Shown here: in pieces, positions 3,921-57,024 of the stretch
Layout of the letters: each line of letters begins with the position of its first letter
Numbering within the stretch: the stretch's first letter is position 1
Source: Patescibacteria group bacterium
GTDB lineage: Bacteria; Patescibacteriota; Patescibacteriia; 2-01-FULL-39-33
Reading direction: 5' to 3'
Length of the DNA stretch: 64,000 nt
Assembly: GCA_041650895.1 (NCBI GenBank)
Contig: JBAZKF010000001.1
Span: forward strand, 509,006-573,005
Program-made: the position numbers and the translations under genes
The notes under the pieces: generated by a model
Told to the model about the DNA's origin: nothing
Database searches by the model: none
Seen by the model: only the letters and a program-made list of their open reading frames with translations

Positions 3921-4003
3921 TGCCGAAGGGGAGACTCGAACTCCCACGGGACAAGCCCACATGCTCCTAAGGCATGCGTGTATACCAATTTCACCACTTC
4001 GGC
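3921..4003 (-). tRNA. tRNA-Leu (anticodon UAG)
   Basis: Reverse complement reads GCCGAAGTGGTGAAATTGGTA...CATGC-CTTAGGA-GCATG with a long variable arm (TGGGCTTGTCCCG) and a T-arm GGGAG-TTCGAGT-CTCCC. Type II tRNA with anticodon TAG; CCA is not encoded. Confidence 0.85.
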
Positions 4004-8050: not shown

Positions 8051-8222
8051 ATAAATTCAGCGGGGAAGATTTCTGGTTTAATTTATTGCGAAACGAATCA
8101 GGGAGCAATCCCCCGATTAAGCAAAACAACGATGGCACCTTCTCATTCACCCACCAATTTATTGTCGCCTGCTTTCTGGCGTCGCCGGCCGATAATCAGG
8201 TGATTTAATTAATGCACAAACA

Positions 8223-8264
8223 CGCCCCCGCGAGGTTTTTCCTTGCGGGGGCGATTTATTTTAC
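8223..8264 (+). terminator. rho-independent terminator
   Basis: cgcccccgc...gcgggggcg 9-bp GC stem followed by atttatttt. Confidence 0.55.
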
Positions 8265-8282
8265 AAAATAATAAATATAAAA

Positions 8283-8312
8283 TAAAAAAAACCGGCCTTA
8301 CGCCGGAATTTT
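8283..8312 (-). terminator. terminator for tyrS
   Basis: ccggc-cttac-gccgg hairpin flanked by A8 and T6 runs, directly after the tyrS stop. Confidence 0.45.
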
Positions 8313-53489: not shown

Positions 53490-54443
53490 ATGTTTATTGA
53501 GTACTGCTTGGCTTATCTGGTCCCATTAATCGCCCTATCCAGCTATCTGCTTATCGGTTGTGCCAGCCACTTCAGCGTCTTCATGCCGGCGGGAACGGCG
53601 CTTAATGATAACTATCATTCATTGACGCGTTGGGAAAGGATTATTTACACTCTGGCTTGGCCAGTCTATTTTTCCATCGACCGTGTCGGCCAAAGATTAT
53701 CATTTATGGCTCGAGCCGTCTCCTGCATCATTATTATGGTAATTATCCTTGATCTGACTCAGTGGAAGATAGCGTCCTTGGATCCAAGCCAAATCGAGCA
53801 GACTTCCTTAGCAACCGATCCGCAATTGAATGAAGTGCAAAAAATCATTAACGACCTGTCAATCATTTATACTGATTGGGATAAAATTGCCATGGCTTCC
53901 TTAGGAAAAAATCAGGAGGCCTCCGTGATCATGCCGGAACACATACTGGCTCCATCGGCCGAACAGATCGCCGCCACTGTCCATCATCCTCTGCAAGCGC
54001 GTACTATTGTTTTCTGCTACCAACTGCAAAACGGCTTGATAGCCGACAATTCACCGCCCAGTTTCAGCCAAATTCATTATTCCCGACGGCCGTTAGATGA
54101 TTACGGTGCCGCAGTTGTTGCCGCTTATGTTCTAAAACACTGCGGTTATGAACCGTATATCCTATGCCTTAAAACCTCTTGGAAAACTTTCTTATTCCGA
54201 CCGCTGAAAAGCTCCATCACTAAAGTCTACCTATACAAACAAGATGGAAAGTTCGGCTACATCTCCTTGCTGGGCATCAGCGAACCGAAGTTCTCCACCA
54301 TTAAAGAACTGGCTCGCGAGTTGTCAAAAAAAATGCAGGTGAACTACACTCAATACTTTTTGTTTGATCTTAATGTCGCTTGTCCGGGATGGGAAAGACA
54401 TAATCCGGGCATCCGAGGCTGTGAAATTTGGCGAAATTTGTAA
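53490..54443 (+). CDS. hypothetical membrane-associated protein
   Basis: 317 aa with N-terminal hydrophobic segments (possible lipobox LIGC). No family recognised. Confidence 0.45.
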   Translation: MFIEYCLAYLVPLIALSSYLLIGCASHFSVFMPAGTALNDNYHSLTRWERIIYTLAWPVYFSIDRVGQRLSFMARAVSCIIIMVIILDLTQWKIASLDPSQIEQTSLATDPQLNEVQKIINDLSIIYTDWDKIAMASLGKNQEASVIMPEHILAPSAEQIAATVHHPLQARTIVFCYQLQNGLIADNSPPSFSQIHYSRRPLDDYGAAVVAAYVLKHCGYEPYILCLKTSWKTFLFRPLKSSITKVYLYKQDGKFGYISLLGISEPKFSTIKELARELSKKMQVNYTQYFLFDLNVACPGWERHNPGIRGCEIWRNL

Positions 54444-54467: not shown

Positions 54468-54860
54468 ATGTCGGAAGATGCGCATCCAACCCCTGATCTG
54501 ACCCCTTATGAACCGTTACCGGAACCACTAAAAAAAGCCGAGGAAGAGGAAAAAGAAATAATAGTGGTATTTGAATATACTGAAAAAGTTTCTCCCGCCG
54601 CTTATTGCGGGACGCGTTTTATGAGAAGTTTTAGCTCAGAAGGGCAATTGAAAGAATTTGAACGGACCATGGAGGCCGATGGTAATTCGCAAGAAAAAAT
54701 CTACAAGGCGGGCGTGACGCAGCAAGAAGGCGAACGTTTGTGCGACGAGGCGTTAACGGACGATAAAATAATAGAGATTGCGTTAGCAAACTCTAATGGA
54801 AATCGGTTTATTTATGAAATGGAAGTGCAGAAAATGCTACTTGCGAAGACATTTCTTTAA
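54468..54860 (+). CDS. hypothetical acidic protein
   Basis: SD AAAAGGAG precedes the ATG. 130 aa. Confidence 0.45.
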   Translation: MSEDAHPTPDLTPYEPLPEPLKKAEEEEKEIIVVFEYTEKVSPAAYCGTRFMRSFSSEGQLKEFERTMEADGNSQEKIYKAGVTQQEGERLCDEALTDDKIIEIALANSNGNRFIYEMEVQKMLLAKTFL

Positions 54861-54876
54861 TAAATAACAGCACACA

Positions 54877-54910
54877 AAAGCCGCGAGCACTTGTTCGCGG
54901 CTTTTAAAAT
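54877..54910 (+). terminator. rho-independent terminator
   Basis: aagccgcgagcac-ttgt-tcgcggctt stem followed by ttaaaattgttatttttt. Confidence 0.65.
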
Positions 54911-54949
54911 TGTTATTTTTTTATTCTAATTTGTTTTTGTATTTTGAAT

Positions 54950-55140
54950 CAAAAAATGCGAGCATAACAAAATCTTGTGCGACTTTATGCGAGAACGACC
55001 AGAAAAGTTTTGCAAGCGGAGCGTCAGAAACTTTTCGGGAGCCTGCCTGCCGGCAGGCAGGTGGAGCATAAAGTTTAGCCATGATTTATGCTTCGCTCGC
55101 GACTCTTTGGTGATACTTTTCTCTAGAGAAAAGTATCGTG
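54950..55140. ncRNA. candidate structured non-coding RNA or MITE-like element (four consecutive strong hairpins)
   Basis: Hairpins at 55002-55036 (gaaaagttt..aaacttttc), 55042-55061 (cctgcctgccggcaggcagg), 55066-55091 (gcataaa..tttatgc) and 55112-55137 (a 26-bp perfect palindrome), plus long-range complementarity between 54957-54966 and 55087-55100. It sits in a convergent intergenic region with no ORF. Confidence 0.3.
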
Positions 55141-55207
55141 AAAATTGATTTGAATTTAATTCAGGGTTTCCGGATAATTTGCTTGCAGATTTTCAGAATG
55201 ACAAAAA

Positions 55208-56710
55208 CTATATCACCTCCACCTTAATTAAATTGCTCTGCCCCTTGTAACCGAAAGGATGGCCAGCCACCACTACTACTGTATCTCCGCGTTTAGCCAA
55301 ACGTTTAGTGAGCAGCAACCTTTTAATATCGGCCAAGAGCTTATTAAAAGAATCAGTAAAGTGCGCTATCTGCGCATCTACGCCCCAACTCAGGGCTAAT
55401 TGCCGTTGCGTCAATGCCGACGGCGTAACCGCTATAATCTGCACAGCCGGCCGAAAACGGCAGATATTACGCGCCGTAAAGCCGGAAGTAGTGGCGCAAA
55501 CAATCAACCTGGCTGATGCGCTGTCCTCAGCCAAATCCTGAGCCATAAAAGAAATCACCTGGGTGATGGATTGATTATTCTTAAAATTGTTCTCCCGCGC
55601 TTCTTCGCGGACAATCTCTTCCTGCTCCATGTGATTGGCGATGCGCGTCATGTATTGCACAGCCTTAAGCGGATATTTGCCGGTAGCGCTTTCGCCTGAA
55701 AGCATGATGGCGTCGGTACCATCCAAAACGGCATTAGCTACATCGGACACTTCTGCGCGAGTGGGAATGGGATTCTTAATCATTGACTCCAACATTTGAG
55801 TGGCCACAATCACCGGCTTGCCGGCTTGCCGGCATTTTTCAATCATGGATTTTTGCAACATGGGCAAATCTTCGATCGGCGTTTCAATACCCAAATCGCC
55901 ACGCGCCACCATAATACCATCAGCCGCTTCCAAAATCCGATCAAAGTTGTTAATAGCTTCGCGCCGTTCAATCTTGGCGATAATCCTGATATGCTCACCG
56001 GAAATCTTACCCCTCATTTCCGGTTTGTCCATTCTCTTGGCGTTGCCGATGTTCAACTTCAAATATTTATTCTCCAGAGCAAAAACCTTCTTACGTAGGT
56101 TAAAAATATCTTTCTCATCCTTAACGAAAGACAAAGCGATCCAATCCACCCCGCTTTTGACACCAAACTCCACATCAGCCACGTCCTTTTTGGTTACAGC
56201 CGGACAATTAATGGATGATTTGGGAAAATTCATGCCCTTATGCGTCTTGATAATGCCATTATTTAGAGCCAGACAGCGAATGGCTCGCTGATCAACTTCC
56301 TTAACCCTCAATTCAATCGTCGCATCATCAATCAAGACCGAATCGCCCTTTTTTAAGTCGCGATATAATCCAGGATATTGTATGGGAATAAGCAAATGAG
56401 CGGTTTTTTTGTCAATTGAGGAATATCTCTCCGGCACCAGATACAATTCCTGCCCCGCTTTTATTTCCACGCCACCGCCCACTTCGCCGATTCTGATGCG
56501 CGGTCCTTGCAAATCCTGCAAGATGGCAATATTAGTATTGATTGCTTTGGCCGCGGAACGCAAATTACGAATCAATTTGGCATGATGGCTATGAGTATTA
56601 TGGGAAAAATTAAGCCGGGCCACATTCAGGCCGGACTTAATCATTTTTTTCATCATTATTTTGGTTTCCGAAGCTGGTCCGATAGTCGCAACAATCTTGG
56701 TTCGTTTCAT
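55208..56710 (-). CDS. pyk: pyruvate kinase
   Basis: MKRTKIVATIGPAS N-terminus with the full PK barrel and C-terminal domain. The ATG at 56708-56710 is preferred over the longer ORF. Confidence 0.9.
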   Translation of the reverse strand: MKRTKIVATIGPASETKIMMKKMIKSGLNVARLNFSHNTHSHHAKLIRNLRSAAKAINTNIAILQDLQGPRIRIGEVGGGVEIKAGQELYLVPERYSSIDKKTAHLLIPIQYPGLYRDLKKGDSVLIDDATIELRVKEVDQRAIRCLALNNGIIKTHKGMNFPKSSINCPAVTKKDVADVEFGVKSGVDWIALSFVKDEKDIFNLRKKVFALENKYLKLNIGNAKRMDKPEMRGKISGEHIRIIAKIERREAINNFDRILEAADGIMVARGDLGIETPIEDLPMLQKSMIEKCRQAGKPVIVATQMLESMIKNPIPTRAEVSDVANAVLDGTDAIMLSGESATGKYPLKAVQYMTRIANHMEQEEIVREEARENNFKNNQSITQVISFMAQDLAEDSASARLIVCATTSGFTARNICRFRPAVQIIAVTPSALTQRQLALSWGVDAQIAHFTDSFNKLLADIKRLLLTKRLAKRGDTVVVVAGHPFGYKGQSNLIKVEVI

Positions 56711-57024
56711 AAGTTTAATGTTTTCTCCAGCCAAGCACCAAACTGTTTGGCCGGTCCGGCTAATAACGGCAATTGCCATTTCTCACCTTCGTAAGCTTTG
56801 ATTATGGCAATAATCGCCACAATAGCAATGATTAAATTAATCAGCCAGCCCAAAACAGGAATAAAACCGACAAAAGAAATTACAAACAACAACACGCCCT
56901 GATTGGCATGGAAACGCACATAACTGTCGTTTTTTTTGACGGCTAAGGCCACCAAACTCAAAACCCAAAGGTAAGAAATAGCTCCCCAAATTTTTTGATC
57001 TGATGTTAATGTTTTATCCGACAT
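56707..57024 (-). CDS. DUF4870-like small membrane protein
   Basis: YLWVLSLVALAVKKNDSYVRFHANQG (an FHANQ motif) with 3 TM helices. Its stop overlaps the pyk start as ATGA. Confidence 0.5.
   Translation of the reverse strand: MSDKTLTSDQKIWGAISYLWVLSLVALAVKKNDSYVRFHANQGVLLFVISFVGFIPVLGWLINLIIAIVAIIAIIKAYEGEKWQLPLLAGPAKQFGAWLEKTLNL

Follow-up and report, generated by a model that had tools for sequence, protein, structure and literature searches.

The sequence at positions 54938-55154 of the window (the whole stretch of 64,000 nucleotides that was analysed) is one old copy of an interspersed, modular, hairpin-forming intergenic repeat family with a length of about 170-220 bp. Its members occur among Candidatus Buchananbacteria-like Patescibacteria, and the family seems not to have been described before. 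The genomes of CPR/Patescibacteria have about 1 Mb and are highly streamlined, and to our knowledge almost nothing is known about their non-coding elements. The element is of a known kind, an interspersed intergenic repeat, in a phylum where none is described in the literature searched; nothing relevant to such a repeat or RNA in Patescibacteria/CPR was found there, and Rfam 15 holds no model for it.

The element is placed between the 3' ends of two genes, as had been predicted from the sequence of the window alone: an ORF of 130 aa on the plus strand (ending at 54860) and the gene encoding pyruvate kinase, pyk, on the minus strand (ending at 55208). The family covariance model R1 matched this copy with 123.7 bits (E = 9e-20, model positions 1-202, cmsearch of the 64-kb window) and the nhmmer family profile matched it at 54944-55143 (E = 6.7e-43). 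The orientation used for the family corresponds to the minus strand of the window. P0, P1, AAATCATGGC, P2 and GCACAAKATTT were all located in the window copy, in the order and with the spacing of the family. The features of the locus are the following:

54938-55154, minus strand: whole element (leader, P0, core hairpin and start of the tail), from cmsearch with the family covariance model R1.
55138-55150, minus strand: T-rich leader AATCAATTTTCAC, immediately 5' of P0; positions -9 to -1 are T-rich in 70 distinct copies.
55112-55137, no strand: P0, a 26-bp perfect palindrome GATACTTTTCTCTAGAGAAAAGTATC, 100% complementary.
55101-55111, minus strand: A-rich linker ACCAAAGAGTC from P0 to P1; the AARAGTCGCG context is conserved in the family alignment.
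55095-55100, minus strand: P1 5' arm GCGAGC, pairing with 54958-54963.
55078-55087, minus strand: invariant block A AAATCATGGC, invariant in 74/74 aligned copies.
55066-55074, minus strand: P2 5' arm ACTTTATGC, 9-bp pairing with 54982-54990; P2 columns are rich in double changes.
55042-55061, no strand: 20-bp GC palindrome CCTGCCTGCCGGCAGGCAGG, a variable apical module, found directly as a palindrome.
54999-55039, minus strand: P3 hairpin, with arms at 55028-55039 and 54999-55010; 12-bp stem with one mismatch, 92% complementary.
54982-54990, minus strand: P2 3' arm GCATAAAGT, from pairing and covariation.
54970-54980, minus strand: invariant block B GCACAAGATTT, facing block A; pairs 128-137 / 297-307 never vary.
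54958-54963, minus strand: P1 3' arm GCTCGC, from pairing and covariation.
54906-54957, minus strand: tail, a T6 run and then an A-rich part with an AAATAC motif (ATTTTTTGATTCAAAATACAAAAAC...), from the AAT[AG]C enrichment across copies.
54876-54905, no strand: GC-rich bidirectional intrinsic terminator, a hairpin separate from the repeat and conserved beside the element in L001 and L005, the loci of the two closest relatives.

Several parts of this anatomy had been anticipated in the original prediction, namely the 26-bp and the 20-bp GC-rich palindromes, the terminal complementarity (GCGAGC at 54958-54963 with GCTCGC at 55095-55100) and the separate terminator of the upstream gene, and all of them hold. 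The four consecutive stem-loops that it proposed are replaced by a nested fold in which P1 encloses P2 and P2 encloses the GC hairpin and P3, with only the 26-bp palindrome (P0) standing apart. This P0 joins a pyrimidine arm (5') to a purine arm (3') through a CTAG centre, and the P3 loop bears the family motif CTGACG...CTTGC. Palindromes like the 26-bp and 20-bp ones did not appear in any of 100 shuffles and neither of the two recurs in the 64-kb window when up to three mismatches are allowed. It had also been said that the region contains no ORF. Mechanical ORFs of 47-57 aa do cross it, but the region is non-coding since the reading frame is not kept across the family. A small protein was considered, as an ORF of 53 aa starts in the window copy at the ATG of block A, and was rejected: the frame is not conserved across copies and the distance from this ATG to GCACAA, modulo 3, is distributed 23/22/29, without 3-periodicity.

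The stretch of 211 nt that was folded has a predicted energy of -74.9 kcal/mol on the plus strand (z = -4.6) and of -75.4 kcal/mol on the minus strand (z = -7.2), and on neither strand did any of 200 shuffles fold as well. RNAalifold applied to the family alignment gave 36 pairs, 26 of which changed on both sides. Paired cells made up 93.2% compared to 78.2% in column shuffles, double-change cells numbered 428 compared to 140, and none of the 500 shuffles matched the observed pairing, double-change count or covariation score. Sliding the 3' partner by 1-3 columns as a control left 36-43% paired, against 93% in the true register. In helix 1 all six pairs changed on both sides, with P1 covariants such as GCGAGC/GCTCGC, GCGACC/GGTCGC and GCGCC/GGCGC, and P3 (helix 6) likewise presented double changes in 6/6 pairs. 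These compensatory changes, which exceed what relatedness gives, point strongly to a structured family. The explanation that the palindromes are a fortuitous cluster is rejected, since other copies were found and the covariation is strong.

The same alignment gives no signal for which strand, if either, is the functional RNA, as pairing is held equally on both. P2 pairs comprised 830 Watson-Crick, 9 G.U and 11 A.C, and the tally for the whole structure was about 64 G.U and 56 A.C, that is, no strand-specific excess of G.U over A.C was present in the stems. The plus-strand orientation folded about 7 kcal/mol better in 68 of 74 copies. This was rejected as a strand call: shuffled controls differ by a similar amount, and the difference is therefore one of base composition.

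The size of the family was assessed in a metagenome collection with the pattern AAATCATGGC N{80,110} GCACAAKATTT, which joins the two most conserved blocks. At least 119 stretches matched, about 25 of those listed being chance matches in coding sequence. An iterated nhmmer profile then gave 97 copies in the 0.94 Mb of loci collected, 20 of them cut at the ends of the loci, mostly contig ends. There are up to three copies per 13-14 kb, one 13-kb contig carries a copy at each end, and about one further copy is found per 50 kb when the copy that brought each locus in is not counted. The search for other copies that had been suggested for the element was therefore productive: at least about 95 further copies exist outside the window, in related genomes and metagenomes, and several contigs are multi-copy. 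The window itself contains exactly one, with neither the nhmmer profile nor R1 finding another in its 64 kb. Non-CPR bacteria and the more distant Patescibacteria had no copy in the pyk loci searched. Carriage of the family by phages was also considered and rejected, as the viral contigs yielded no true copies, only five short-gap matches which are phage coding sequences.

All copies follow the same order of T-rich leader (about 9 nt), P0, A-rich linker, P1, block A/B helix, P2, apical part and A-rich tail. P0, defined as the longest perfect-complement hairpin upstream of the core, has 10-16 bp in 63/74 copies, is usually placed 20-22 nt before block A and occurs in 53 distinct sequences around a constant CTTYTYTAGARAAG-like centre. 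Block A is intact also in copies found by nhmmer and missed by the search pattern. It pairs with block B (GCACAAKATTT) in a helix where an A.A mismatch and a bulged A are fixed. P1 and the two blocks together make an imperfect inverted repeat of about 24 bp, with P0 and the leader outside one side of it and the tail outside the other. In the tail AAT[AG]C is enriched about 7-fold in the 60 nt after P1, and a weak A-rich conservation reaches about +30.

The apical part is composed of interchangeable modules, which include P3 with CTGACG...TTGCG, assorted GC hairpins and, frequently, a small hairpin with a GATTAC loop. Variants without the whole apical part persist and solo 3' fragments are also found. 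The commonest P3 apical module is GGATTACCTCCTT, present in 11 of 74 copies (for example those of L118, L056 and L037) and absent from the window copy. It coincides in 12 of 13 bases with the anti-Shine-Dalgarno region, the canonical 3' end of 16S rRNA in bacteria (GGAUCACCUCCUU), and its opposite strand reads AAGGAGGT, a strong Shine-Dalgarno sequence. This likeness may be accidental, or it may reflect capture or functional mimicry.

The GC palindrome CCTGCCTGCCGGCAGGCAGG recurs as a unit of its own, also outside the element family. Its sites are 55042-55061 in the window, 1316-1331 and 1459-1478 in L001, 9423-9440 in L004 and the upstream flank of the L116 element. In L084 (about 895-918) it is placed inside the P3 loop of an element copy (781-1013), that is, in a different position. 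It is often nested in GTCATTCCCGCG...CGCGGGAATGAC-type palindromes and looks like a second, smaller palindromic repeat able to land inside the larger one.

The copies are always intergenic and occur in both orientations, 46 of 70 on the same strand as the upstream gene and 24 antisense to it. Their neighbours include the housekeeping genes fusA (EF-G), a murD-like Mur ligase, map, adk, pheS, tyrS, valS, clpP, lgt and pyk, and adk is bracketed by copies in two different genomes. The distance from the upstream stop codon to P0 is 3-12 nt (mode 8-9) in 24 of 45 cases, and convergent genes tend to have their stop codons about 22 nt after P1. This spacing on both sides indicates functional borders at the leader and at the tail. 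Many copies are only 0-10 nt away from the flanking genes.

Eight clusters of copies with at least 95% identity have unrelated flanks, and where near-identical copies differ in their flanks, their borders show no direct repeat that could be a target-site duplication. Neighbouring genes encode no transposase or integrase. A tblastn search of about 1 Mb of loci for RAYT and the Y1 transposase TnpA of IS608 was also negative. In L106 (5208-5407) and L134 (3971-4170) the left flank of the element is common and the right flanks differ, which suggests that the copies have recombined, or else that the assembly was joined at the repeat.

The host is a Candidatus Buchananbacteria-like bacterium. The pyruvate kinase of the window is 89-92% identical to proteins of Candidatus Buchananbacteria and Patescibacteria genomes assembled from groundwater. 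In L001 and L005 the element is at the same site after pyk, and in a third relative (L002) a copy in the same orientation is placed upstream of pyk, at a contig end. The three-way alignment of the window with L001 and L005 presented changes on both arms of P0, P1 and P2. The palindrome CCTGCCTGCCGGCAGGCAGG is absent from the elements of these two relatives, which have a GTCCGTCTGCGACGGAC hairpin at another position. Between the window and L005/L001 the fourfold-degenerate sites of pyk are 61-62% identical, compared to 83-86% for the basal part of the element (P0 to the P2 5' arm), 81.5% for the 3' basal part, about 76% for the tail and 53-55%, with large indels, for the apical part. Judged from these identities, the base of the element may be under purifying selection or else held near the family consensus by conversion. 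In all the orthologous comparisons available (flank identity of 71-100%) the copy is kept at its site, sometimes with another set of apical modules. Moreover, three copies on contig Ga0172379_10001081, and thus of one genome, are 15-25% diverged with the pairing kept.

The original prediction had recognised no tmRNA, RNase P or SRP RNA signature in the element, and the Rfam search agrees with this. At the gathering threshold Rfam 15 found in the whole window only a tRNA at 3921-4003, at E <= 10 the hits in the region 54800-55300 stayed below threshold at noise level, the best reaching 23.6 bits where the gathering score is 50, and at E <= 0.1 no match fell on the element in ten other copy-bearing loci. 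One locus, L038, contains a class A RNase P RNA (8-386, 151.8 bits) about 570 nt from an element copy, and the family is distinct from this RNA. Hammerhead and hairpin-ribozyme cores, compared by eye, do not fit CTGACG and GATTAC and were rejected. A role of P1 and its T-run as operon-end terminator was rejected as well, the T-run being present in a minority of copies and having no association with convergent context (Fisher p = 0.76). Promoter-like sites occur at the element at chance level only, and no conserved promoter was seen.

The element had been put forward as a candidate ncRNA or MITE. It is indeed a dispersed structured repeat, in the spirit of a MITE, with multiple non-coding copies below about 500 bp; it is not a textbook MITE, and nothing points to an independent transcript. 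Target-site duplications are missing, and the inverted-repeat arms seem to be internal and not truly terminal. An inverted-arm hairpin is present, as in REPINs, with arms that begin GTCGCG/AGTCGCG and without the GTAG or CGTC tag. For these reasons the family is not a member of any named one.

The reading that we favour, with about even confidence, is that the window holds an old, fixed copy of a REPIN/BOX/ERIC-like interspersed repeat which is transcribed passively with pyk. The family is placed with REPIN, BOX, ERIC and Correia elements because it has many copies, which lie in two orientations and break assemblies, because truncated derivatives exist and near-identical copies are found at unrelated sites, and because its base is conserved while the apex is free and its stems are Watson-Crick on both strands. 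The element would then be a non-autonomous DNA repeat, with copies that would be duplicated or homogenised between intergenic sites without target-site duplication. Its basal part (P0, P1 and the asymmetric internal loop) may be recognised, in a folded single strand or cruciform, by a putative trans-acting protein. There is no terminator between the pyk stop codon and the element, which is therefore probably transcribed passively as 3' untranslated region, where folding at about -75 kcal/mol could shield the 3' end or direct its processing. Mobility of the family is inferred; searches with the flanks of every copy returned filled orthologous sites only, all loci having been chosen for holding a copy. 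This result counts against the favoured reading, as do the negative search for a transposase, RAYT or other partner in about 1 Mb of sequence, the kept pairing of the diverged copies within one genome and the single copy in the 64-kb window.

A possible but more doubtful explanation is that the element is a host-selected cis-acting RNA module which punctuates transcription units, its spread being secondary, and in which the long P1/P2 duplex, interrupted by the fixed internal loop, would be processed (e.g. by RNase III) or protect the 3' end of the upstream mRNA. It is a serious rival because internal nucleotides are invariant, because copies are long retained in essential operons and because the base is conserved in excess. 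Conservation is highest in the internal loop and not at the termini, which is more typical of functional RNAs than of MITEs, and the retention of orthologous copies across 15-29% flank divergence in essential operons of streamlined genomes points to host-level selection. The tight placement of copies against genes within such operons, the repeated occurrence on both sides of adk, the basal conservation above neutral sites, the strong compensatory changes and the co-orientation of most copies with the upstream gene are also consistent with it, and stems that are Watson-Crick on both strands would give the same fold whichever strand is transcribed. However, about a third of the copies (the 24 of 70 mentioned above) are antisense to the upstream gene, and G.U, which is usually tolerated in RNA stems, is no commoner than A.C. 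In addition, generic duplex processing does not need an invariant sequence of 10-11 nt, the T-run after P1 does not track end-of-operon contexts, and near-identical copies at unrelated loci together with the assembly breaks indicate duplication dynamics.

It is unlikely that the family is not selfish but a new, CPR-specific class of functional structured nucleic acid, be it an RNA module or a mobilisation substrate. In the former case the invariant asymmetric internal loop would be the catalytic or protein-docking core of a self-cleaving or processing element punctuating operons where regulators are few. In the latter the folded strand would be the substrate of an undescribed hairpin-recognising mobilisation system, to which the lack of target duplication, P0 and the repeat-like tail might correspond.

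Independently expressed structured RNAs, or a new class of self-cleaving ribozyme with the invariant internal loop as active or binding core, are improbable and less likely than a cis-acting RNA role. The covarying helices do frame invariant unpaired or irregular nucleotides, the apical loop motifs are conserved (GATTAC in 24/74 copies, CTGACG in 31/74), the covariance model gives the forward strand 124-133 bits and the reverse strand only 23-27, and no Rfam family matches. Nevertheless no conserved promoter is seen, and many copies are so close to the flanking genes (0-10 nt) that none would fit; copies occur in both orientations inside operons, the stems have no G.U strand asymmetry, and the apical half is dispensable, as deleted variants persist. 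Least probable of all is a double-stranded DNA protein-binding site without any role for folding, with P0 as operator or the element as a BIME-like site for nucleoid protein or gyrase: the perfect palindrome with its conserved CTTYTYTAGARAAG centre, the imperfect inverted repeat of blocks A and B and stems that are Watson-Crick on both strands would suit it, but the arm length and outer sequence of P0 vary freely (53 versions), P2 and P3 change completely in sequence while keeping a complementarity that a duplex site does not require, and the mismatch and bulge of the invariant helix are themselves conserved.

As an interspersed repeat the element can be compared with the REPIN/REP sequences and their RAYT in Pseudomonas and E. 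coli, which are also dispersed intergenic hairpins of inverted arms without target-site duplication, with tens of copies per genome, long vertical persistence and a recognition motif near the hairpin base. However, REPINs have about 70-110 nt, are unbranched and carry a GTAG or CGTC tag, whereas the present element is multibranched and about 200 nt long, with an additional perfect palindrome upstream and a repeat-like tail, lacks GTAG and is not accompanied by a RAYT in the approximately 1 Mb searched. The BOX elements of Streptococcus pneumoniae share with it conserved end modules, variable internal modules, a length of 100-250 nt and an intergenic location; they are co-transcribed with their neighbours, have very stable predicted RNA structures and no known transposase. 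They are unrelated in sequence, belong to another phylum and have neither a separate perfect palindrome nor an invariant internal-loop helix.

ERIC/IRU and Correia (NEMIS) elements of Proteobacteria are imperfect palindromes of 100-160 bp, present in both orientations in transcribed intergenic regions and with size variants generated by internal insertion or deletion, and the transcripts of Correia elements are RNase III substrates. No sequence similarity with the present family exists. Correia elements moreover have 26-bp terminal inverted repeats and a TA duplication, whereas here the arms are internal and no duplication is seen. The IS200/IS605-derived PATEs also lack target-site duplication, are recognised as folded single-strand hairpins and have a modest orientation bias to genes, but their subterminal hairpins are similar at both ends, unlike P0 and the core stems, and no TnpA or TnpB was found near copies of our element. 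Integron attC sites are alike in folded-strand recognition, in a stem base with fixed unpaired bases, in a variable terminal structure and in their location just after gene ends. They differ in that the element has no RYYYAAC/GTTRRRY boxes, integrase or cassette array, occurs in both orientations and is flanked by core housekeeping genes.

The family is kept inside ribosomal-protein and tRNA-synthetase operons despite the streamlining of these genomes. It would thus be either a long-lived genomic parasite in genomes thought to be short of room for one, or a module taken over for regulation or processing by organisms that have very few regulators. In practical terms such repeats break CPR genome assemblies, and they offer a convenient lineage marker.

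Some minor observations concern the rest of the window. The next-best match of R1 is at 8204-8292 on the minus strand (19 bits, E = 0.19), in the gap beside a tyrS-like gene. Element copies are found beside the same gene in L105 and L032. The match probably consists of terminator hairpins only; it is not credible as a copy and, less probably, is a decayed remnant. Directly upstream of the element, the ORFs at 53490-54443 (plus strand, 317 aa) and 54468-54860 (plus strand, 130 aa) have no Pfam match, and their position is conserved in L001 and L005. When the pyruvate kinase ORF is started at its first ATG, 73 nt of it (56707-56779) are shared with the upstream DUF4870-like ORF, and the alignments with the pyruvate kinases of the relatives begin only at residue 18-23. 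The true start of pyk is probably a later codon.
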